In this document: in pieces, positions 4,241-62,643 of the stretch | Position numbering within the stretch: position 1 is the first letter of the stretch | Layout of the letters: the number at the start of each line of letters is the position of its first letter | NCBI GenBank assembly: GCA_001819495.1 | Contig: MHMW01000018.1 | Location: forward strand, 3,322 to 67,321 | Reading direction: 5' to 3' | DNA from: Candidatus Portnoybacteria bacterium RBG_19FT_COMBO_36_7 | GTDB taxonomy: Bacteria; Patescibacteriota; Minisyncoccia; Portnoybacterales; GWB1-42-6 | DNA length: 64,000 nt | Notes under the pieces: model-generated | The model's input: only the letters and a program-made list of their open reading frames with translations | What the model was told of the DNA's origin: nothing | Databases searched by the model: none | Translations under genes and position numbers: made by a program

Positions 4241-7200
4241 TTAGAAGCTCAATGTCTGAGCGGTCAAGCCGGAAGCCGGCAAGCCTGAAACCAGATAACC
4301 ATTGGTCCAGTCAGCTGTAGCAGTTGAATGAGCTGCTTTGCTGAAATCAGACCAGATAAAGTTATCGTCGACATCTGGAATAGCAGTCGCATCAACCCCC
4401 GCAGCGGTTGTCATATGCGTGCCCCAAGCTTGACGAGGACTGGTATCACCACGCAAATATGTTACCACAGTTGCGTTAGTGGTTGCGCCAGTAACTGTTC
4501 CGCGCACAACGAAATCTCTATAGGTGCCGGCCGAAACCGTCCTAGGAGTCGCTGTGCCGCCCGGAGTGCCGGGAGAAGCCATTAAGACAACATCAATATC
4601 ATTTGTGCTAACACCAGGCATAATAAGTTGAGTGCTGCTGGCATAAAGCACTGTGTTTCCTCCGCTAGTCACATCAACCAAATTAAAGTAAGTGACATTG
4701 GCAACAGTAGTTGAGATGCGGAAGGTAAATTTGTATAAATCGATATCGCCTTTGGCATCAGCCGCTACTCGGAATTTAAGCAAGTCCATATCGCTGTTAC
4801 TCAACTTGGTTGTTGATACATCAAGTTTAGACACGGTCGGAACAGACCTGTAAATATAGGCGTATGGCTGGGCCGTAACTGTGCTGTAGTTGGCGATCTT
4901 TGCGCCCGAAGACATACCAGTCGCTTCGTTTTCTGAAGTGCTGGTTGAAGGCCAGAAGTTAATTGCCAATTGATGACCGGCAATCGCTGTTGGATTACTC
5001 GTATCATCCATACTGGCAATATCAACTTTTATTCTCACCACCTTATCAGTGTTTGCAGGTAATACCAATGGCGTTGTGAAGACAATGGTTGAGCTGGCAT
5101 TAGTTGAGCCGGCTATTGCATTGCCTATTCCAAGCACACTGCCGCCTGCATTCAGCAAGGTTTCGTCTGGACCGTAGACATAGACTTTGGCAATATCATT
5201 ACAGGTTGAGCTGGCAGTCGTTACTGTGTCCCAAGACGAACTGGCTGATGTCAGAGATAAGCGAAGCTTGGTAATGTTAATCTGCTCCGAAGTTGCTCTG
5301 AAGCGCAAAGCGGTCACAATGTTGCCAGTGGTATTAGCAGCAATCAGTCTTCCGGTCGGACTGGAAGAATCCAGAGCCACGCTCCATTGACCGGCTGCCG
5401 CAATTGTCATTATAGCCCCAAATTCAGACGTAGTCGTATTAACCGTAACAGTTTGACCGGTTGAAACGCCAGTCGCTGTCACATTGGTTGTAACGCCATC
5501 TGTAAAGCCCCATCTCTGGGTATTGCCAGTGGCAGCTGTTGCAAGAATATTGCCTTTCACCGCAATTGTCTTTGAAGTCCCTTTGGTAATAACCAGAGGG
5601 TTGTCAAAGGTAACAGTGTTGGCTCCCGGATTAGCCGCAGCGGAAGGAGTGATGATGTTGGAACCCGTATTTAACGCAGTAGTGTCGTCGAATAATTGAA
5701 CGCCAAACACGTCGGTTGCTGTGGTATAAGCATTTCTCAAAACAACTTGAGTAACCCTAACGTCTTCTCCCGAAGCAGATGCATCAAATATAATATTGCT
5801 GAAAATGTAGCCTTGTGTTCCCGCAATGACTGACTGGGCAACAGGAGTACCGCCAATATGAACTGCCAGCGTACCGCCTCTAATAGTCATTATATTGCCG
5901 TAGATATTTGAGTTAGGAGTAACAGTGATGCTGTTGCCGGTGATTGCGCCGGTGGCTCCGGTTATTCTGGTTTGCGGTGTGGCGAATCCGACTGCAATTG
6001 TGTCACCTGCCACAAAATCGGTGCCCACATTACCTTTAACTAAGACCTGGGTTGTACCGACCGGCAAAGAGACAGAACCAGTGAAGGTGGCCGTGCTATC
6101 TGGATTAGCAGTAGTAGTATCTGCTCCACCATTAACAGGGCCGGCTAAAACCGTACCATCGGCTTTAGCTAAGACAATGTTGGTAATATCCGAAGAACTG
6201 CCATTACCGGTTAACGCCCCAGCCGTAATATCAATGTCCAGGATAATGCTGGTTGGTCTTACTTCTTCGCCCTGAACAACAAAATCAAAGGAACCAAGGA
6301 TTTGGCCGGTTGCGCCTCTTGTAATGTTAGCTGTTGGCGCGCCTGTGGTGCTTTTATCAACTCTTAATGCGCCACCGCCGATAGTGACATCTGAGCCGCC
6401 AAAATACGGCGAGGCATTAATATCTATAAAGGTATTGGTGTTGCCAGGAGTCCCATAATCAGTAGTCCCAAAACTTAGCACGATATAATAACCGTAGGTA
6501 TTGCCCTTGACCACAATATCGGTATTCCGATAGATATCAAAGGAAACTGTGCGGCCTGAACCGTTTATTATATCACCCGAGATGGTAAATTCCTTGTTAA
6601 GGCCTTTGGCAATGACAACCCCTGCTCCAAAAGAAGCAGTGTAGTATTTGCCATCGGATGAAACGGTTGTTGCGTAGTCAGTTGTGCCGTCTGAAACCTT
6701 AACATTAGCCAAGTCAGAAGAAGCGGCTGAACCAGATTGATTCCATCTGATTGAAGCAACTGTTACGTCTTCCACCGAACCAGCAGTGATCCTCAAACCG
6801 GAAAATTTAAAGGCTGTTGTGCCAACATTTTTATTGGCACTTGCCGTTAATGGATCTAAACTGCCAACGCTGACGGTGGCCGAGCCAATACTCAAGCTTC
6901 CGTTAATCGTCATGTAGTTGCCGGTAATCGGCAATGCGCCAGACACGCTCGAAGCAGTTGAAACCCCTACTAAGCTTAATGTAACTACCTGCCCGGCATA
7001 AGTGGAAGTTACTGAAGGCATATTGGCGGCAATCAAAATAGATTTGGTTGTGCCGGCCGGAATCGTAATTGTGTCAGGGAATATGGCTTGATGGTTTGCG
7101 TTTAATGCCTGATTAAGGCCAATTTGGCTGTTATCCGCAGTGTCAATCAACATTACAGTTGAAATAGCCGCGTCAACTGCCAAACCTGTTCGCTGAACTG

Positions 7201-7873
7201 TAATGCCGGTAATTGTCACGGCACCGGCTGAAGAAGCAGTCAGATTGACTTTTGTAAAGCCAACGCGGGCTGCACTAGCAGGAGCCATGCCGGCTACTGG
7301 TGTGTCTGAAGCCAAAGCAACAGACAAAGCGCCGGCTGGTCCGGGCGTGATGCCTTCGCCAGACAACGTGCAGGTGGTATCGTCATTGCTGGCTGCGTAA
7401 TTGTCGCGGTCAACCGCATTTATCTGGTATATTGAATCCCAGTCAAACAAGGTATTTGATAAACCGCAGGCTGTAAACGCCTCGGCTGTCATATTTACCC
7501 AGTGTTTTCCGCCAACGTCGCTGTTGGGTGTCGGAAACAGATTGTAGACTTTGGGATCGCCTTCGGCTCTCACCAAAGTAGATTCTATGAATTGATCCAA
7601 CGTTGCCTGATCAACGGTTTTGACGTTCTCCCATTTGAGATGCTGATAGCTGTTGAACACGGTCGGGCTCAAAATCAATCTTTTGAATTGTTTGGAACCG
7701 ACGTATTTTGCGATGTAGATATCAGGGCTAGTGGCGGTTTTAATCATATCGCCTTCATTAACCCCTGTAACTACCGCGCCAGCTGCCAGAGGAGCAAGCA
7801 TCGCTACTCCGCTTACCATGGCAATCGTGGTGAAACTTGTCGTGATAGAAACTAATTTTTTAAGTTTACTCAT
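4241..7873 (-). CDS. very large Thr/Ser/Gly/Ala/Val-rich cell-surface protein with an N-terminal signal peptide (putative S-layer or adhesin)
   Basis: 1210 aa with a signal-like N-terminus (MSKLKKLVSITTSFTTIAMVSGVAMLAPLAAGA). The composition is low-complexity and beta-rich, with internal repeats and no enzymatic motifs. It has a dedicated strong terminator and a long upstream leader. Confidence 0.6.
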   Translation of the reverse strand: MSKLKKLVSITTSFTTIAMVSGVAMLAPLAAGAVVTGVNEGDMIKTATSPDIYIAKYVGSKQFKRLILSPTVFNSYQHLKWENVKTVDQATLDQFIESTLVRAEGDPKVYNLFPTPNSDVGGKHWVNMTAEAFTACGLSNTLFDWDSIYQINAVDRDNYAASNDDTTCTLSGEGITPGPAGALSVALASDTPVAGMAPASAARVGFTKVNLTASSAGAVTITGITVQRTGLAVDAAISTVMLIDTADNSQIGLNQALNANHQAIFPDTITIPAGTTKSILIAANMPSVTSTYAGQVVTLSLVGVSTASSVSGALPITGNYMTINGSLSIGSATVSVGSLDPLTASANKNVGTTAFKFSGLRITAGSVEDVTVASIRWNQSGSAASSDLANVKVSDGTTDYATTVSSDGKYYTASFGAGVVIAKGLNKEFTISGDIINGSGRTVSFDIYRNTDIVVKGNTYGYYIVLSFGTTDYGTPGNTNTFIDINASPYFGGSDVTIGGGALRVDKSTTGAPTANITRGATGQILGSFDFVVQGEEVRPTSIILDIDITAGALTGNGSSSDITNIVLAKADGTVLAGPVNGGADTTTANPDSTATFTGSVSLPVGTTQVLVKGNVGTDFVAGDTIAVGFATPQTRITGATGAITGNSITVTPNSNIYGNIMTIRGGTLAVHIGGTPVAQSVIAGTQGYIFSNIIFDASASGEDVRVTQVVLRNAYTTATDVFGVQLFDDTTALNTGSNIITPSAAANPGANTVTFDNPLVITKGTSKTIAVKGNILATAATGNTQRWGFTDGVTTNVTATGVSTGQTVTVNTTTSEFGAIMTIAAAGQWSVALDSSSPTGRLIAANTTGNIVTALRFRATSEQINITKLRLSLTSASSSWDTVTTASSTCNDIAKVYVYGPDETLLNAGGSVLGIGNAIAGSTNASSTIVFTTPLVLPANTDKVVRIKVDIASMDDTSNPTAIAGHQLAINFWPSTSTSENEATGMSSGAKIANYSTVTAQPYAYIYRSVPTVSKLDVSTTKLSNSDMDLLKFRVAADAKGDIDLYKFTFRISTTVANVTYFNLVDVTSGGNTVLYASSTQLIMPGVSTNDIDVVLMASPGTPGGTATPRTVSAGTYRDFVVRGTVTGATTNATVVTYLRGDTSPRQAWGTHMTTAAGVDATAIPDVDDNFIWSDFSKAAHSTATADWTNGYLVSGLPASGLTAQTLSF

Positions 7874-8399: not shown

Positions 8400-9599
8400 C
8401 TATTCGTTATTTACGCTTGTGCCAAACACCGAAATATTCAGCCAGACAGGCGGGGTAGTCGTTTCATGGACAAAGTCTATTTCAATATCAATAATGGCAC
8501 TGGGAGTTGAAGTTGCGAAAGGCGTTGTTGCCGGCGAGGTTGTCGCGTTTTCTATCACAGGGTTTTGAACCGGGTCTTGCGTCTCTGGCAAAGAAGCCGC
8601 ATCCACCATCTGCTGGGCGCTTTTTACCATTTCAGTGGCTGTTTTTATAATCGTCAAAGCGCCGGCAAAATCGCCGTTTCTTAAACACTCTAATGCCTGC
8701 TCAATTGCCTTATCGGATTCATCAAGAATAATGGTTGCATTTATCGGCAATTTATCGGAAATTGCCGAATTGCTTACTGTTTCCGAAAGAATATTAGCTA
8801 TTTGTCTGGTTTTCTGGATCTTATCGTCAACTTTAGCCGCGATTTCCGTTTCGCTCATCCCTCCTTCACCCTGCATCTGGACCATCATTTCAAGCGCCCT
8901 TATGCTTGTTTTATCGGCTTCTTCAGTAGCTTCGGCTATTTTATCGGTTAAATTGTTCTTCATATCCGGCGATAGTGCCAATTTTGCCTGACTTAGGCTT
9001 TGTTCGGCTGAAGCAGCACTCTCGTCTATCTTTCTGGCTGCTGCAACTACTTTTTTAGCCTCGGTTTTGCTCAATTTGGGCAATTCGTCTTTTGCGCTTA
9101 AAAGATGGCGCTGCAAGTTATTTACTGCCTCTTCAATTTTGGTCTGTTTTTGTTCCATTGATCCTTCAGTGCTAATAATTTTATTCAGCTCGTCAATCCT
9201 GGCTGAAATCATATCGGTCTGAACCTGAGCTTTGCCTTCGGCAGAAGTCGTGGCAAAAAGTCTTGCTTCTTCCAGCGCGATTTTAACTGGAAAAAGCCTG
9301 TCCCCGGGCAAGCTATTTTTGGCTCCGGCAATAACAGCCAGACTGCTGCTGAACATAAAGCCGAAAATAAGAACAAAAGCCGCTACTGGTTTTAATACGG
9401 GGTGGGGATTTCTGATATAGCACCAAATTGAGACAATTGCCGAAGAAAAATTAAATGCCGGAATTGTTTCTTTTTTGCTATTTTTGGCCATTTCAAGCGT
9501 AATTTTCTCACGGCAAAAAATAACCCAATTTTCATCCGGCTTTATCTTTTTTAATTGATTTAAGCGTTCTATTAGATTGTTTTCGCTTATTTCGCTCAT
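8400..9599 (-). CDS. membrane-anchored coiled-coil protein, putative anti-sigma factor (DUF5667-like)
   Basis: It sits immediately downstream of the ECF sigma gene. The start is placed at MSEISENNLIERL (ATG 9599..9597), followed by a single TM helix and a long coiled-coil, A/E/K-rich periplasmic part. The ORF-track extension to 9734 runs through a repeat element from an internal GTG and is rejected. Confidence 0.5.
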   Translation of the reverse strand: MSEISENNLIERLNQLKKIKPDENWVIFCREKITLEMAKNSKKETIPAFNFSSAIVSIWCYIRNPHPVLKPVAAFVLIFGFMFSSSLAVIAGAKNSLPGDRLFPVKIALEEARLFATTSAEGKAQVQTDMISARIDELNKIISTEGSMEQKQTKIEEAVNNLQRHLLSAKDELPKLSKTEAKKVVAAARKIDESAASAEQSLSQAKLALSPDMKNNLTDKIAEATEEADKTSIRALEMMVQMQGEGGMSETEIAAKVDDKIQKTRQIANILSETVSNSAISDKLPINATIILDESDKAIEQALECLRNGDFAGALTIIKTATEMVKSAQQMVDAASLPETQDPVQNPVIENATTSPATTPFATSTPSAIIDIEIDFVHETTTPPVWLNISVFGTSVNNE

Positions 9600-9741
9600 C
9601 CAGGTAGTAGAAATTCGACTTGATTTTTTAATTATTGCCAGCCCCGTAGTAGAATTTTGACAAGAACGTAGCTCCAATCCCGTAATGAAAAGTCGAAATT
9701 TCACTACGGGGCCAGGCAGCAGTCGAATTTTCACTACCTGG
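9600..9741 (-). mobile_element. element copy A: a 20-bp-TIR element (CCAGGTAGTAGAAATTCGAC / GTCGAATTTTCACTACCTGG) carrying a nested second copy at 9642..9711
   Basis: The outer TIRs are at 9600..9619 and 9722..9741 and are flanked by CAT direct repeats. The inner copy (CCCCGTAGTAGAATTTTGAC...GTCGAAATTTCACTACGGGG) is flanked by CCAG direct repeats at 9638..9641 and 9712..9715. The gene-proximal end abuts the ATG of the anti-sigma-like gene. Confidence 0.7.
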
Positions 9742-27898: not shown

Positions 27899-27969
27899 CT
27901 GCGGGGCTTGGAATCGAACCAAGATTCCCAGATTCAGAGTCTGGTTGCCTACCTTTAGCAGACCCCGCA
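27899..27969 (-). tRNA. tRNA-Gln (anticodon CUG)
   Basis: Hand-folded cloverleaf: acceptor UGCGGGG/CCCCGCA (U1-A72), anticodon stem CCAGA/UCUGG with loop CUCUGAA, T-arm CUUGG-UUCGAUU-CCAAG, discriminator G. No CCA is encoded. Confidence 0.8.
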
Positions 27970-30829: not shown

Positions 30830-30901
30830 AGCCGATGGTCGGGATTGAACCGACAACCTATCGCTTACGAAGCGATTGCTCTACCATTGAGCTACATCGG
30901 C
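30830..30901 (-). tRNA. tRNA-Thr (anticodon CGU)
   Basis: Hand-folded: acceptor GCCGAUG/CAUCGGC, D-arm GCUC-AAUGGUA-GAGC, anticodon stem AUCGC/GCGAU with loop UUCGUAA, T-arm GUCGG-UUCAAUC-CCGAC, discriminator U. No CCA is encoded. Confidence 0.85.
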
Positions 30902-35402: not shown

Positions 35403-35473
35403 AGCGGGATACGGGAATCGGACCCGTCTCTCGACCTTGGGAAGGTCGCATAATACCGATATACTAATCCCGC
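35403..35473 (-). tRNA. tRNA-Gly (anticodon CCC)
   Basis: Hand-folded: acceptor GCGGGAU/AUCCCGC, anticodon stem CGACC/GGUCG with loop UUCCCAA, T-arm ACGGG-UCCGAUU-CCCGU, discriminator U. Confidence 0.75.
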
Positions 35474-50506: not shown

Positions 50507-50880
50507 ATCCAAGCAAGCTGGGTAATTGCCCTGCACTTTTAATAAAGGTCCAGGGAGGAAAGTCCGAACTCCATCGTTCACTAAAAAGTGAAGGTAAAAA
50601 AGTAGCGGCTAACCGCCGTCCATCGTAAGATGCGAGGTGCGAACAGAGACGCCTGAAACCGAAAGGAATCGGGTATCCTTAATGGATAATTCTTAATGGC
50701 AACATTAAGACTGAAACGGCCAAATCCTTACTGGGAGCAAGATCAAACCTATGAGGCGACAAGCTTGATCTCATAGAGAAAAGTAGATCGCCAGAGCCCT
50801 TGAGCAATCAAAGGCCAAGACAGATAATTATCGCCCCGCAATTGCGGGGTACAGAATTCGGCTTATAGGCTTGCTTGGAT
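50507..50880 (+). ncRNA. rnpB: RNase P RNA (bacterial type A)
   Basis: The P1 helix CCAAGCAAGC/GCTTGCTTGG closes the molecule. Conserved GGAGGAAAGTCCGAACTCC and ACAGAATTCGGCTTATAG (P4 strands) are present. It has its own terminator. Confidence 0.85.
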
Positions 50881-50887
50881 AAATAAA

Positions 50888-57920: not shown

Positions 57921-57954
57921 GACTTAAAATTTTCAATTACCAATTTCCAATAAA

Positions 57955-57973
57955 CGCCTGCCTCTGGCAGGCG
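57955..57973. repeat. GC hairpin CGCCTGCC-TCT-GGCAGGCG (a minimal form of the secY-flanking stem motif)
   Basis: It is an 8-bp perfect stem next to a 7-bp-periodic AT tract (57922..57950), upstream of the GT2 gene. Confidence 0.6.
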
Positions 57974-58145
57974 AGGATATAAAAAATCAGCAATCTAAAA
58001 TTGGTTATAGCTCTATAATATCACACTTCTCTTTACTTTCCCAACAAAAAAATCCACAGGCAGCCCTCTTTGACAATTGAAGACTTTGCTAATTTATGTT
58101 ATTTTTAATAGTAGTTTTTTAAAAACTTAGAAAGGGGTGATTCTT

Positions 58146-58448
58146 ATGAACATAGCCGTTGTTTTTATTTCGCCGGATGAAAAAGATTATTATGAATATC
58201 TTAAGAGCTTTGAAATTAACAATCTGATAATATTGCAAATTGGTTTATCTCAAATTTTTAAGGAACTCGGCACGGCTTACAGTATCGTTGATAAGATTAG
58301 CGGCGCTTTTGTCGCCAGGCAATTTTTTGACGATACCCAAAGAATAGAAAATTTAATCATCTGCGGCCCGCTTAAATTATTGAATGATTGCAAAAAACTT
58401 TTTTTTGGCATGGCGGGTAAAACTCATTTTTTCCCCGAAAAAAAATAG
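58146..58448 (+). CDS. hypothetical protein
   Basis: 100 aa from the ATG at 58146, preceded by the strong SD AAAGGGGTGATTCTT. The N-terminus (NIAVVFISPDEKDYYEYL) is faintly reminiscent of TIR-like/nucleoside-binding folds. It has a bidirectional terminator downstream. Confidence 0.4.
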   Translation: MNIAVVFISPDEKDYYEYLKSFEINNLIILQIGLSQIFKELGTAYSIVDKISGAFVARQFFDDTQRIENLIICGPLKLLNDCKKLFFGMAGKTHFFPEKK

Positions 58449-58535: not shown

Positions 58536-59336
58536 TTAAGTTTTTGTTAAAACATCGCACCCTTCTTTCGTCACCGCCACTGTATGTTCAAAATGAGCGG
58601 ACAGCGATTTATCGCTGGTCTCATAGGCAAAACCATCTTTACTTTGTTTTATTTTATAACCGCCGGCTGCTATCATCGGTTCGATTGCCAGAGTCATGCC
58701 TTCTTTTAAAATAGGGCCTTGACCCGGACGGCCGAAATTTGGCACTTCAGGGTCTTCGTGCAATTTTTCTCCCACGCCGTGGCCGACCAGATCTCTGATA
58801 ACCGAAAATCTCTGGCTTTCAACATATTTTTGGACGGTAAAACTGACATCTCCAAGATGCACACCAGGTTTTATTTTTCCAATTGCGATTTCCAGTGATT
58901 TTTTTGCCGTTTCAATCAATTTTTTGGCTTGCGGCGAAACTTTACCGACTGCCACCGTCAGGGCCGCGTCAGTAAAAAATGGTTTGTTTTCCGGATTACA
59001 AGTGCCTCCCATTGGACAAGAATGGCATTTTCCGACCGGATACAGAATTCCCAGATCCAAACCGATAATATCACTCTCTTTCAGTTTTCTGCCCGATGGC
59101 GCGCCGTGTACTACCTCTTCATTGATTGAAGTACACAGCGCCGCGGGAAACCCCTGATATCCCAAAAACGCGGGCTTGGCGCCGCAAGAAAAAACAAGGT
59201 CTTGCGCGACCTTGTCCAGCTCTATGGTTGTGGCGCCTGGCTTAACTCTTTTTGCTACTTCTTCAAGAATTTTTGCCAGCAGCCAGCCGCCTTCTTTCAT
59301 TATTTGGATTTCCTGAGGCGTTTTTATTATAATCAT
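58536..59336 (-). CDS. map: type I methionine aminopeptidase
   Basis: It has the metal-ligand pattern (D..D..H..E..E) and is colinear with MAP1. Confidence 0.9.
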   Translation of the reverse strand: MIIIKTPQEIQIMKEGGWLLAKILEEVAKRVKPGATTIELDKVAQDLVFSCGAKPAFLGYQGFPAALCTSINEEVVHGAPSGRKLKESDIIGLDLGILYPVGKCHSCPMGGTCNPENKPFFTDAALTVAVGKVSPQAKKLIETAKKSLEIAIGKIKPGVHLGDVSFTVQKYVESQRFSVIRDLVGHGVGEKLHEDPEVPNFGRPGQGPILKEGMTLAIEPMIAAGGYKIKQSKDGFAYETSDKSLSAHFEHTVAVTKEGCDVLTKT

Positions 59337-59341
59337 TTATT

Positions 59342-60010
59342 TTATTTCAAAATTCTCAGTATATTCTCATGCACTTCTTCGATCGGCCTGTTGCCGTCAA
59401 TTTTTATCAATAATCCGTTTTTCTCATAATGATCAATCACCAGCTGAATTTCCGTCTCAAAAACATCAAGCCGATGGCGGACAACTTCAGGATCATCATC
59501 AGCTCTTTTTACCAGAGTACCGCCACATTTATTACATTCGGTCATCTGTTTAAAATATCCAAAATAAGGAATTATCTGGCCGCATTTTTCACACATCCGC
59601 CGCTGGGTTAATCTGGCATAAGATTCTTCAGCCGAAATATCAATCAGAATAACTTTTGTAAATTCCAGCAAGTCGTACCATGCCAAAGCATCCTCCATCA
59701 AGCGCGCTTCAAGAATTTTTCTGGGATTTCCGTCAAAAACTGCACCTTTAAAATCCGGCTTATTTTTCATTACGTCAATCTTGTCAAGCCATAATTTAAA
59801 AATCAAAAAAGTCGGCACTAAATCTCCTCTGTCTAAAATTGCTTTCAGTTTAGAAGAACTGAAATCGTGATTCTCTTTCGCCATCTCGCGCAGCAAATCA
59901 CCGCTGCCGATATATTCCAAGCCAAATTTTTCCCTCAACAATTTTGCCTGAGTTCCTTTGCCGCAACCGGGCCGGCCTAAAATTATGGTGACAAGTGGAT
60001 TCTGGTTCAA
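59342..60010 (-). CDS. adk: adenylate kinase (zinc-lid type)
   Basis: It has the P-loop GRPGCGKGTQA and a lid CEKCGQ...CNKCGG. Confidence 0.9.
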   Translation of the reverse strand: MNQNPLVTIILGRPGCGKGTQAKLLREKFGLEYIGSGDLLREMAKENHDFSSSKLKAILDRGDLVPTFLIFKLWLDKIDVMKNKPDFKGAVFDGNPRKILEARLMEDALAWYDLLEFTKVILIDISAEESYARLTQRRMCEKCGQIIPYFGYFKQMTECNKCGGTLVKRADDDPEVVRHRLDVFETEIQLVIDHYEKNGLLIKIDGNRPIEEVHENILRILK

Positions 60011-60027
60011 TTTCTAATTTCTAATTT

Positions 60028-60136
60028 CCCCGCCTGCCAAAGCCAATAGAAATTACTTGATATTGTCAATCGAAGACGGTTAAATTTATTAAATTATTTA
60101 ATTTGTATCTGCTCGCTTTGGCTATTGGCGGGCAGG
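60028..60136. repeat. R1: a GC-clamped long stem-loop element (arms CCCGCCTGCCAAAGCCAATAG / CTTTGGCTATTGGCGGGCAGG) between adk and secY
   Basis: Stems GCCAATAG/CTATTGGC and CCTGCC/GGCAGG enclose about 67 nt of AT-rich sequence. It is the inverse-orientation partner of R2. Confidence 0.6.
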
Positions 60137-60198
60137 TAATTTCTAATCCAGTGCCACAAAACGGCACTTTATTGAAAATTGAAAATTGAAAATTTTAT

Positions 60199-61473
60199 TT
60201 AAAGACCTTCATACTCTCGCATCGTCAATTGAGAATCGACCTGCCTGATAGTTTCCAAAACCACTGCTACGACGATAAGGATAGAAGTACCGCCGACCGT
60301 AAAAGTAGTCACTCCTGTTGCGCCCTGAACGATATTTGGCGCAATGGCAATCAAGCCCAAAAATATAGCGCCGACCAGCAAGACTCTGTTCAAAATAAAA
60401 TTAAGAAAATCTGAAGTTGGCTTGCCGGGCCGGATACCCGGAATAAAACCGCCCATTTTTTGCAGATTTTCGGCGATATTTTTTGGATCAAAAGTGACGG
60501 CTGTATAAAAATATGTAAAAAGCAGAACCAGAACAAAATAAATAACGCTGTAGATAATCTGGCCTTGCTCGAATATATCTCGCAAAAATGTGGCAGCGTT
60601 GGCGATCCAGGGAGTAGAAGAATTGGCAAAAAAATTGCCGATCATACCCGGAAAAAGCATTATCGATAAAGCAAAGATAATCGGGATAACTCCTGCCGGA
60701 TTAACATTCATGGGCAGATAAGTTGAAACTCCGCCGTACATACGATTGCCACGAATTCTTTTGGCGTAAGATACGGGGATATTGCGCCGGCCTTCGGTTA
60801 TAATAACCACACCCACAATTACCAAAAGGCTAATCGCGATAAATCCAAGATAAGCAGGAATTTTGGTCGGGTCCCAGGTGGTCAGAGTCTGCCTGAAAGA
60901 AGTCGGAAATCCCGCCACGATGCCGGCAAAAATCAGCAATGATACTCCGTTACCAATCCCTTTCTCGGAAATTAACTCGCCTATCCACATCAAAAATATT
61001 GTTCCCGCAGTAATAACAGTTATTGTCGTCACTAATTGATAAGTGCTTAAAAATCCAATGACCTGCTGGTTACGCAAAATGCCGATCATGGCGTAAGCCT
61101 GCAATGCGGCCAGAGGAATAGTGAGCAATCTGGCATACTGATTGAATTTCTGCCGGCCGGCCTCGCCTTCTTCTTTGTACATCTGTTCCAGCCGCGGGAA
61201 GATCATCGTCAGAAGCTGCATAATGATAAGGCCGGTGATGTATGGACCTAATCCCAGCATCGCCACTGAAAAATTGCTCATTGCCCCGCCGGTAAAAAGA
61301 TTAAGCAGACCAAACAGCTGATTGCCCTCAAAAAAAGCACGAAGTTTTGTTAAATCAATTCCGGGCACAGGAATATTAGCTATAATCCGGAAAACGACAA
61401 AAGCACCAAGGACAAATAATATTTTGTTTCGTAGCTCTGGGACTTTAAAAATCTGAATTATCTTATTCCACAT
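60199..61473 (-). CDS. secY: preprotein translocase subunit SecY
   Basis: 424 aa with 10 TM helices and N-terminal FRIIANIPVPGID. Confidence 0.95.
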   Translation of the reverse strand: MWNKIIQIFKVPELRNKILFVLGAFVVFRIIANIPVPGIDLTKLRAFFEGNQLFGLLNLFTGGAMSNFSVAMLGLGPYITGLIIMQLLTMIFPRLEQMYKEEGEAGRQKFNQYARLLTIPLAALQAYAMIGILRNQQVIGFLSTYQLVTTITVITAGTIFLMWIGELISEKGIGNGVSLLIFAGIVAGFPTSFRQTLTTWDPTKIPAYLGFIAISLLVIVGVVIITEGRRNIPVSYAKRIRGNRMYGGVSTYLPMNVNPAGVIPIIFALSIMLFPGMIGNFFANSSTPWIANAATFLRDIFEQGQIIYSVIYFVLVLLFTYFYTAVTFDPKNIAENLQKMGGFIPGIRPGKPTSDFLNFILNRVLLVGAIFLGLIAIAPNIVQGATGVTTFTVGGTSILIVVAVVLETIRQVDSQLTMREYEGL

Positions 61474-61588
61474 ATATCCTATTAAAATTTAAATTGTAAA
61501 AATCAAAATTCAAAACTACAGTTCAAAATTAAAAATTTAAATTTTGCATTGCTCGCCTCGCTGTAGCTTTGGCGAAGCGGGTCATTTT

Positions 61589-61699
61589 GCCTGCCCGCCA
61601 ATTGCCAAAAAGAATAAATCACTCAAAGAATTTTTATTTGCTTTGACTAATTGTCGCTGTCAGTTAAGAATAATCACAATTGGCTCTGGCAGGCGGGCA
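61589..61699. repeat. R2: a GC-clamped long stem-loop element between secY and rplO, inverted relative to R1
   Basis: The ends are GCCTGCCCGCCAATTGCC ... CAATTGGCTCTGGCAGGCGGGCA. The reverse complement of R1 matches both ends (CCTGCCCGCCAAT.GCCAAA and ATTGGCT.TGGCAGGCGGG). Confidence 0.6.
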
Positions 61700-62160: not shown

Positions 62161-62163
62161 AAA

Positions 62164-62643
62164 TTATTTCTTCATCCTTATTTTTTCAAACGCAGCCAAA
62201 GTGGCTCTGGCATTATTAATTTTATTGGTAGTGCGGCTGACCACTTTTGCGGAAATATTCTGAATTCCTACCAAATCACAGATAACTCTGACCACGCCGC
62301 CTGCCACCAAACCTCTGCCTTTTTTAGCTGGCTTTAAAATAACTTTTGCGGCGCCGAATTTTGCCGTTACTTCATGCGGAATAGTGGCGTCTTTTATTGG
62401 CACGATCAACAAATTTTTCTTGGCGCTGGCGACCGCCTTTTCAACCGCCGTGGTTACATCCTGGGCCTTGGCAATTCCCAAAGCCACTTTTCCAGCTCTG
62501 TTGCCAATAACAACAGCTGTCCGGAAACGGAAACGCCGGCCGCCGGCCACGACTCTGGTGACCCTGGCCACATCCAAAACTTTCTGATCATATTCAGATT
62601 TTTCTCTTTCTCTTCCTCTAAATTTTCTCATTGGTTCTGCCAT
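62164..62643 (-). CDS. rpsE: 30S ribosomal protein S5
   Basis: It has S5 dsRBD and C-domain motifs (VTRVVAGGRRFRFRTAVVIGN). It lies directly adjacent to rplO with no rpmD between. Confidence 0.9.
   Translation of the reverse strand: MAEPMRKFRGREREKSEYDQKVLDVARVTRVVAGGRRFRFRTAVVIGNRAGKVALGIAKAQDVTTAVEKAVASAKKNLLIVPIKDATIPHEVTAKFGAAKVILKPAKKGRGLVAGGVVRVICDLVGIQNISAKVVSRTTNKINNARATLAAFEKIRMKK

Follow-up and report, generated by a model that had tools for sequence, protein, structure and literature searches.

Hairpin repeats on both sides of secY in a Candidatus Portnoybacteria ribosomal operon belong to a dispersed family and are probably copies of a small mobile element

The window analysed here, a 64-kb stretch (64,000 nucleotides in full) of the genome of Candidatus Portnoybacteria bacterium RBG_19FT_COMBO_36_7, carries a ribosomal operon in which secY is bracketed by two copies, R1 and R2, of a hairpin repeat. 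The genes concerned all lie on the minus strand and comprise rpsE (62164–62643), rplO, encoding ribosomal protein L15 (61702–62160; Pfam Ribosomal_L27A), secY (60199–61473; Pfam SecY, E = 1.2e-104), adk, encoding adenylate kinase with a TTG start codon (59342–60010; Pfam ADK), and map (58536–59336). The SecY product is 100% identical to a protein of Candidatus Portnoybacteria, a lineage of the Candidate Phyla Radiation (CPR). An earlier reading of these letters, referred to here as the original prediction, had pointed to outsized spacers around secY, and the measured distances agree: 228 nt separate rplO from secY and 188 nt separate secY from adk, compared with 3 nt between rpsE and rplO.

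R1 (60029–60136, plus strand) lies in the secY–adk spacer and measures 108 nt from tip to tip, reading CCCGCCTGCC...GGCGGGCAGG on the plus strand. R2 (61590–61697, minus strand) belongs to the same subfamily, has the same length of 108 nt, reads CCCGCCTGCC...GGCGGGCAGG on the minus strand and starts 4 nt past the rplO stop codon. Both copies carry the two 10-nt tips exactly, together with A at position +11, GCC at +14 to +16, and GGC followed by T ahead of the 3′ tip; their 3′ linker is 4 nt long, as against 3 nt in the family consensus. When R1(+) is compared with R2(−), the common 5′ end is CCCGCCTGCCA(A/G)AGCCAAT(A/T)G and the common 3′ end is TTTGGC(T/A)ATTGGCGGGCAGG, so that 21–22 nt are shared at each end by two copies standing in opposite orientations around secY. 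Shuffles of the window give only 0.00–0.02 expected matches to the 20–21-mers of these ends, and no third copy of them was found in the 64 kb with 2–3 mismatches allowed. The interiors of R1 and R2, by contrast, align without gaps and are equal in length, with identity at background level only. The shared end modules, as well as the statement that R2 is the reverse-complement arrangement of R1, are therefore borne out by alignment, by window matches far above shuffles and by direct comparison of the two sequences, and the initial observation on the pair is confirmed.

The original prediction also held that each copy folds into a two-part stem. RNA folding returns this terminal two-part stem on both strands of R1 and R2, with energies from −30.6 to −37.6 kcal/mol and z values from −3.2 to −3.8. 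The terminal stem is an imperfect, GC-rich helix of 11 bp in which CCCGCCTGCCA pairs with TGGCGGGCAGG. The tips themselves are imperfect inverted repeats (8 of 10 positions matching), and when CCCGCCTGCC pairs with GGCGGGCAGG, position 3 is always a C.A mismatch and position 7 a T/U.G pair, while the mirror arrangement is seen on the opposite strand. Inward of this helix, a short internal loop is followed by a second stem that begins with GCC/GGC, and the two stems enclose a freely variable interior, named here the ‘cargo’, of roughly constant length. Past the GCC/GGC pairs, fixed-register pairing in the inner stem is weakly above slid controls, and no covariation is claimed for it. Folded as single-stranded DNA with DNA parameters, R1 stands out from its shuffles on both strands (z = −3.4 and −3.6). 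Direct GCC/GCCAA repeats are present within the ends CCCGCCTGCCAAAGCCAATAG and CTTTGGCTATTGGCGGGCAGG, which have no internal palindrome and no GTAG or CGTC. A role as intrinsic terminator is not supported, since the mRNA strand has no U-run after either copy (the minus strand continues with CAAAAUGACC past R2 and with GAAAUUAG past R1) and a terminator scan lists neither. A search of R1 and R2 against Rfam 15 gave no match at the gathering threshold or with E up to 10, and in 16 other member loci Rfam found ordinary tRNAs and no other family. The promoter-like sequence that had been noted on the antisense strand of the interiors does not exceed chance, promoter-like hexamers occurring at 14 sites in the region that includes R1 and R2, against 11.7 expected.

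The immediate surroundings of both copies are themselves rich in small repeats. The native part of the secY–adk spacer (60137–60198, minus strand) consists of an AT-rich arm of 7-mer repeats and a small hairpin, GTGCC-N7-GGCAC; together with positions 60006–60028 it forms an AT-rich palindrome within which R1 is inserted. The apparent 7-nt direct repeat that flanks R1 is explained by tandem GAAATTA repeats. A target duplication of 6–7 bp (GAAATTA at R1, CATTTT/ATTTT at R2) was accordingly considered and rejected: these short repeats sit in AT-rich sequence, the R1 flank being a tandem 7-mer repeat, and no other member has such a duplication, so that they are not a family trait. On the other side of secY, R2 is adjoined by a second small GC-rich hairpin, GCTCGCCTCGC-N10-GCGAAGCGGGTC (61551–61583), which belongs to a different repeat family and yet has an 11-bp stem with non-Watson–Crick pairs at positions 3 and 7, the geometry of the R1/R2 tips. 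This GCTCGCCTCGC...GCGAAGCGGG hairpin has a near-copy at approximately 1300–1345 of locus L195, with identical arms and three loop differences, and CTCGCCTCGC is present in the secY–adk spacers of L001 and L003.

Comparison with the same operon in relatives shows how much of this DNA is particular to the present lineage. The set comprises ten related loci, representing eight distinct sequences (L003–L005 share one SecY), with SecY 77–92% identical to that of the window. No R1/R2 tips are found in L001–L006. In relatives whose SecY is 91% identical, the rplO–secY spacer measures 4 nt (L001, L002) or 13 nt (L003–L005), as opposed to 228 nt here; R2, the hairpin at 61551–61583 and the AT-rich stretch therefore constitute extra DNA of this lineage. 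Across the relatives, the spacers of rpsE–rplO–secY–adk–map range from 4 to 303 nt, and the longer ones hold long hairpins of unrelated sequence (z = −3 to −9), L266 being compact with spacers of 31 and 34 nt. A hairpin family of about 200 nt is shared by the secY–adk spacers of L001 (5276–5498) and L265 (3776–3967), which are 71% identical over 195 nt, and recurs in the rpsE–rplO spacer of L267 (1621–1923; 80% over 84 nt), suggesting that this operon hosts a further family of mobile repeats. Large hairpin-filled rpsE–rplO spacers are seen in several relatives, reaching 134 nt in L265 and 303 nt in L267. The rplO–secY–adk order is collinear and on one strand in all ten loci. The ribosomal operon of this clade has thus been repeatedly invaded by several hairpin repeat families while its gene order has stayed constant.

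The constancy of gene order bears directly on one proposal of the original prediction, namely that the inverted pair acts as a recombination substrate able to invert secY; mobilization of the gene, as by a composite element, is considered along with it. In favour of this reading, two inverted copies with identical 21-nt ends stand on the two sides of a single gene. No inverted arrangement appears among the ten loci, however, the shared identity of only about 21 nt per end is too short for homologous recombination, the interiors differ and no recombinase gene lies nearby; secY is moreover essential and depends on transcription of the operon. Inversion of secY can accordingly be set aside as very remote.

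A more serious alternative is that the stems are RNA elements kept by selection. They would then serve as RNase III-type processing sites, 3′-exonuclease barriers or partial attenuators in the rplO–secY–adk transcript, uncoupling the secY mRNA level from that of the ribosomal-protein genes, and the mobile family would be a mere source of ready-made stems. Several observations fit this explanation: the two copies present in 64 kb bracket secY, their RNA folds are stable (z about −3.5), L006 also has long hairpins of unrelated sequence on each side of secY, and a structured secY–adk spacer is found in seven of the eight distinct related loci, all but the compact L266. Other members adjoin fusA, tyrS, infB/rpsA and greA and surround tRNAs, and the near two-fold symmetry of the terminal stem would make either orientation usable by a dimeric double-strand RNase. 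The element is absent, however, from relatives with 77–92% SecY identity, including L266 with its compact spacers; neither stem is followed by a U-run; R1 and R2 have opposite orientations; no Rfam family corresponds to them; and conservation is confined to the ends. Selection for an RNA function is for these reasons considered rather unlikely. The more specific idea of an attenuator setting the stoichiometry of secY and the ribosomal proteins is not supported by the comparison with these relatives, whose spacers of 4–303 nt and unrelated hairpins lack the element. Absence from close relatives and opposite orientations at the two sites would indeed, as far as sequence comparison can tell, leave regulation of secY by R1 and R2 without support.

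Members of the family were sought beyond the window by scanning one genome per species for the two 10-nt tips alone, placed 73–103 nt apart, which returned at least 120 stretches; the family-wide figures below refer to the matches listed. In loci with less than 56% G+C, positions that were not part of the search are conserved, with A at +11 (69%) and GCC at +14 to +16 (73–78%) on the 5′ side, and GGC at −16 to −14 (62–85%) and T at −11 (78%) on the 3′ side. Loci with at least 62% G+C (Streptomyces and others) show no such extra conservation and are chance matches. The hosts among the matches listed include Saccharibacteria, Uhr-, Kerfeld-, Nomura-, Morani-, Shapiro-, Doudna-, Buchanan-, Woyke- and Amesbacteria, Paceibacterota and Desulfobacterales. 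Close subfamily members come from other environments or samples (L195, L219 and L114); they are 105–108 nt long with unrelated interiors, and the stretches they share at the two ends contain at most two substitutions. L195 and L219 are identical to R1 along 21 nt of the 5′ end and 22 nt of the 3′ end, whereas L114 has one difference in the 5′ end and a 3′ match of 19 nt. Overall, the family spans 99–116 nt, and members whose interior is not a tRNA cluster at 99–108 nt. A metagenome scan with a 15-nt pattern gave 2 real members among 120 matches listed, the rest being chance. Of 17 matches on viral contigs, nearly all were high-G+C chance matches and only L251 and L259 are plausible, so that a phage origin was rejected. 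The CCCGCCTGCC...GGCGGGCAGG family has no Rfam model and is spread over many CPR lineages and Desulfobacterales; literature searches on the motif, on tRNA-in-tRNA arrangements and on CPR hairpin repeats found no description of it.

Across the family members inspected, no target-site duplications were found. Orientation with respect to transcription varies, as in R1 versus R2, and tRNA-carrying copies divide 15 versus 7 among the matches listed. In Desulfobacterales, copies form Russian-doll nests that descend to minimal units of 32–33 nt (L025, 1850–1882 and 3100–3420), one of which occupies a tRNA terminator's hairpin loop; further metagenome-assembled genome (MAG) loci of this order show the same tips and nests (L012, L023, L053, L068 and L121). 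Three copies abut head to tail in L020. In L121, and possibly in L077, both of Desulfobacterales, a copy breaks a reading frame that is continuous once the copy is removed. CPR copies without a tRNA interior often adjoin translation genes, being found upstream and downstream of fusA and upstream of tyrS-like genes, and others occupy an infB/rpsA divergent spacer and a greA–lysS-like spacer; the only proteins that recur beside copies are housekeeping and translation proteins. The suggestion of a REP-like (repetitive extragenic palindromic) element stood up best among those of the original prediction, given a dispersed family with conserved ends, presence or absence between close relatives, both orientations, nesting and occurrence in many genomes.

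Three origins of the variable interiors were considered. Spacer-like matches to other DNA amounted to short AT-rich chance matches only. Copying of the R1 and R2 interiors from their flanks is rejected (z = 0.2–1.8), such copying holding only for tRNA cargos. An origin from decayed tRNAs, which would account for the constant length, is not supported: T-loop-like motifs occur in 2 of 37 non-tRNA interiors versus 10 of 13 tRNA interiors, and no match to a tRNA model was seen with E up to 10.

A subset of the family carries a complete tRNA gene as its interior, detected by ARAGORN in 22 of the 134 tip-pair matches listed. All 22 of these copies lie inside a host tRNA gene that has the same anticodon and the same strand as the cargo. 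Exact removal of the copy restores an intact outer tRNA in 14 cases (L008, L019, L026, L035, L046, L054, L064, L081, L087, L097, L104, L109, L112 and L113), with junctions in the D-loop (positions 20–23) or the anticodon loop (positions 31–38). The outer tRNA is not restored in the remaining eight (L013, L027, L048, L078, L090, L096, L107 and L125); its halves can be seen in these, and they are found at a contig end, have degenerated or bear additional small hairpins or elements. The tRNAs concerned are Thr(CGU), Thr(GGU), Arg(CCU, CCG, UCU, UCG), Pro(GGG), Trp, Gly(CCC, UCC), Val(UAC, CAC) and Cys, and the host genomes span different CPR phyla. The Thr(CGU) cargos of Saccharibacteria, Paceibacterota and Moraniibacteriota share 82–85% identity with one another and 62–72% with their own outer tRNA, whereas in L081 and L026 cargo and outer tRNA are 85–90% identical. 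As to a derivation of the cargo from mature tRNA by reverse transcription, for which CCA served as the marker, some cargos have CCA where their outer gene does not, and the converse was also seen. Among the matches listed, no copy without a tRNA cargo interrupts an otherwise intact tRNA, and none of the 22 tRNA-carrying copies lies outside a tRNA gene. The interrupted outer genes are missed by ARAGORN unless the insert is removed.

The simplest reading of these copies is that the element favours hairpin loops of heavily transcribed genes and that insertions into an essential tRNA gene survive only when a working copy of the tRNA is aboard. The fact that no tRNA-carrying copy is found elsewhere leaves cargo-linked targeting and RNA-level excision as alternatives. 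In the latter case, cleavage by a host endonuclease at the base of the terminal stem would be followed by sealing of the flanks by a ligase, in the manner of an intron, so that interrupted tRNAs would stay functional and insertions would be harmless. The stem does bring the two junctions together, exact removal restores the cognate tRNA in the 14 copies listed above, whose junctions fall within the D-loop or the anticodon loop, and several outer tRNAs are still perfect cloverleaves despite a difference of about 30% between lineages. The eight unrestored outer tRNAs argue in the opposite direction, degeneration or further insertions being recorded at L027, L090, L096, L107 and L020 and two cases lying at contig ends, because decay is what is expected of dead genes. 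Furthermore, the junctions do not have the archaeal bulge–helix–bulge geometry of two 3-nt bulges and a 4-bp helix; they lie at the base of an uninterrupted 11-bp stem whose only irregularities are single mismatches. We know of no bacterial splicing endonuclease, and splicing would be without purpose for the intergenic R1 and R2. Removal at the RNA level is therefore judged improbable. A bolder reading is that the family represents a new kind of mobile element, one that targets the loops of structured, highly transcribed genes and is able to carry a complete tRNA gene. Its tRNA-carrying copies would then be either a ‘disrupt-and-rescue’ selfish arrangement, in which an essential tRNA gene is destroyed and a replacement supplied, or a new bacterial tRNA intron encoding a second tRNA, and R1 and R2 would be cargo-variant members residing in a ribosomal operon. 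This proposal is put forward tentatively, as a possibility that falls short of being the favoured one.

Several known classes of element resemble the family in part. Correia/NEMIS elements of Neisseria and ERIC elements of enterobacteria are imperfect palindromes of 100–150 nt that occupy operon spacers, vary in presence or absence between strains and are transcribed into stem-loops that RNase III can cleave and that can alter mRNA stability; they have fixed interiors and defined duplications (TA for Correia). R1 and R2 share with such classical MITEs, which derive from insertion sequences with a DDE transposase, the possession of terminal inverted repeats (8 of 10 positions) but differ from Correia and ERIC in that the interiors are unrelated between copies and no target is duplicated. 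Integron attC sites have conserved paired ends with obligatory unpaired bases, an internal loop and a variable centre of 50–140 nt, and are recognized as a folded single strand. R1 and R2, in contrast, lack the R″/R′ core sites RYYYAAC ... GTTRRRY at their ends, hold their cargo within the hairpin rather than between sites, and have no integrase context. Elhai and colleagues are said to have described, in 2008, cyanobacterial small dispersed repeats that consist of tiny palindromic units, apparently mobile and nested. These are like the 32–33-nt units and Russian-doll arrays of the Desulfobacterales loci, although sequences and hosts differ, and we know of no report of tRNA cargo in them. Hairpin insertions in the loops of structured RNA genes are also represented by the intervening sequences of bacterial rRNA and by archaeal bulge–helix–bulge introns and split tRNAs, the archaeal examples including non-canonical tRNA positions. 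The present family differs from both in its lack of a bulge–helix–bulge, its bacterial hosts and its second, cognate tRNA, as well as in its occurrence in mRNA spacers and coding regions.

The closest likeness is to REPINs, in which conserved inverted ends enclose a spacer that is less conserved in sequence but matters through its length and its potential to form a hairpin, and which insert into or beside existing copies (PMC3116915). Like them, the family consists of units of about 100 nt with two highly conserved inverted ends and a variable spacer that keeps its length and hairpin potential, and it occupies extragenic sites and forms clusters by insertion into or next to existing copies. 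REPINs, REP doublets that form hairpins, are mobilized by REP-associated tyrosine transposases (RAYTs), or IS200-like Y1 transposases (Bertels and Rainey 2011, PMC3116915). Enzymes of this class are expected to leave no target duplication. Differences are also apparent: the conserved hairpin of the present family arises from pairing of one end with the other, the window and the loci examined yielded no RAYT gene bordered by these ends, the same ends occur across many phylum-level CPR lineages as well as Desulfobacterales, and the interior can be a complete tRNA gene.

Taken with the features observed directly, namely that the copies belong to a family, that the spacers hold more DNA than those of close relatives, that duplications are absent, that copies nest and that the cargo varies, these likenesses point to R1 and R2 as two independently acquired copies of a small, non-autonomous, REPIN-like mobile element with hairpin ends, an interpretation that is held to be probable with moderate confidence. 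An enzyme whose gene lies in another part of the genome would recognize the folded single strand and would cut and join it precisely where the terminal stem begins, most plausibly an IS200/RAYT-like single-strand (HUH/Y1) transposase or a structure-specific recombinase. Such a mechanism would account for the lack of a target-site duplication, for the restoration of the interrupted sequence by exact removal, and for the arrival of new copies in hairpin loops, within older copies and in DNA that is heavily transcribed. R1 and R2 would have entered rplO–secY–adk spacers that were already rich in hairpins and that attract such repeats, where they are probably co-transcribed and would form stable stems in the mRNA. 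Should they alter how the secY message is processed or how stable it is, this would be a side effect rather than a conserved regulatory design.

A number of findings weigh against mobility as the explanation of R1 and R2. As single-stranded DNA, R2 folds no better than its shuffles (z = −1.5 and −1.6). No exact empty site is available for either copy, the closest relatives being about 8% diverged in SecY with spacers that cannot be aligned. The sole two copies in 64 kb both adjoin secY, which could instead mean selection at this site, and the location of many members in translation operons and tRNA genes is likewise predicted by an RNA-level function. No transposase, recombinase or reverse transcriptase is present among the 52 open reading frames (ORFs) of the window that were scanned, and no enzyme is linked to the element: the sole Y1 transposase gene among the loci examined (L118; Pfam Y1_Tnp, 31.7 bits) is flanked by different hairpins. 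Finally, whereas each end of a REPIN is a REP, a short imperfect palindrome, those of R1 and R2 have no palindromic form of their own and carry neither GTAG nor CGTC, the typical tag of classical REPs (PMC3733652), so that mobilization by a RAYT is an analogy only.

The L118 gene (6580–7281) is a RAYT/IS200-like Y1 gene in a Patescibacteria MAG. It is flanked by REP-like hairpins of the form GGTTCAAAGC-N4-GCTTTGAACC, and its coding region appears to hold additional in-frame hairpin repeats.

Other features of the window can be described more briefly. A hairpin at 57955–57973, previously taken as a minimal version of the R1/R2 motif, does exist; it reads CGCCTGCC-AGA-GGCAGGCG on the minus strand, is followed by a U-rich tract and lies in the leader of a glycosyltransferase gene. 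Some 45 nt upstream of the hairpin stands a promoter-like block, CCTGTGGATTTTTTTGTTGGGA...TGTGATATTAT, which is kept upstream of this gene in L001, L003 and L006. Relatives hold hairpins of different sequence at the same leader position, GTCCCG-TTTG-GCGGGAC in L001 and TCCGTC-TGC-GGCGGA in L003. The hairpin is therefore a positionally conserved leader hairpin outside the R1/R2 family, and its identification as a solo copy of the element is ruled out. The promoter-like block (58015–58044, minus strand), which has an extended −10 and is kept in three relatives ahead of the glycosyltransferase operon, and the leader hairpin with its U-rich tract (57921–57975, minus strand), conserved in position and not in sequence, stand as observations of their own; the hairpin and tract may form an attenuator. 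The heptamer GCCTGCC occurs 21 times in the whole window, against 7.35 expected. Beyond R1, R2 and the 57955 hairpin, the sites that were inspected fall within reading frames, and the plus strand, antisense to most genes, carries most of the occurrences; the excess is probably a codon or composition effect. No L30 gene is present between rpsE and rplO (62161–62163), as is usual in CPR genomes. An RNase P RNA of bacterial class A (50510–50881, plus strand; 127.5 bits) and three tRNA genes (27899–27969, 30830–30901 and 35403–35473, all on the minus strand) are uninterrupted. Two ORFs of 1,210 residues (4241–7873, minus strand) and 444 residues (8400–9734, minus strand) have no Pfam match with E up to 1e-5. 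A 103-residue ORF without a Pfam match (58137–58448, plus strand) is situated between map and the glycosyltransferase gene, on the opposite strand to them, within roughly 400 nt that are missing from relative L001.

The large spacers around secY are thus most simply accounted for by invasion of hairpin repeats, which removes a tempting regulatory story, and such invasion is common across the ribosomal operon of Portnoybacteria, with fast turnover. The family itself combines unusual traits, namely exact insertion that leaves no scar, an interior constrained in length and free in sequence, nesting into hairpin loops, and tRNA-carrying copies that reside in the matching tRNA. Should the tRNA-in-tRNA arrangement reflect targeting or splicing rather than survivorship, it would amount to a novel way of replacing tRNA genes or to a novel class of intron in bacteria, and it would become a practical concern for the annotation of tRNAs in CPR genomes, where interrupted outer genes go undetected.

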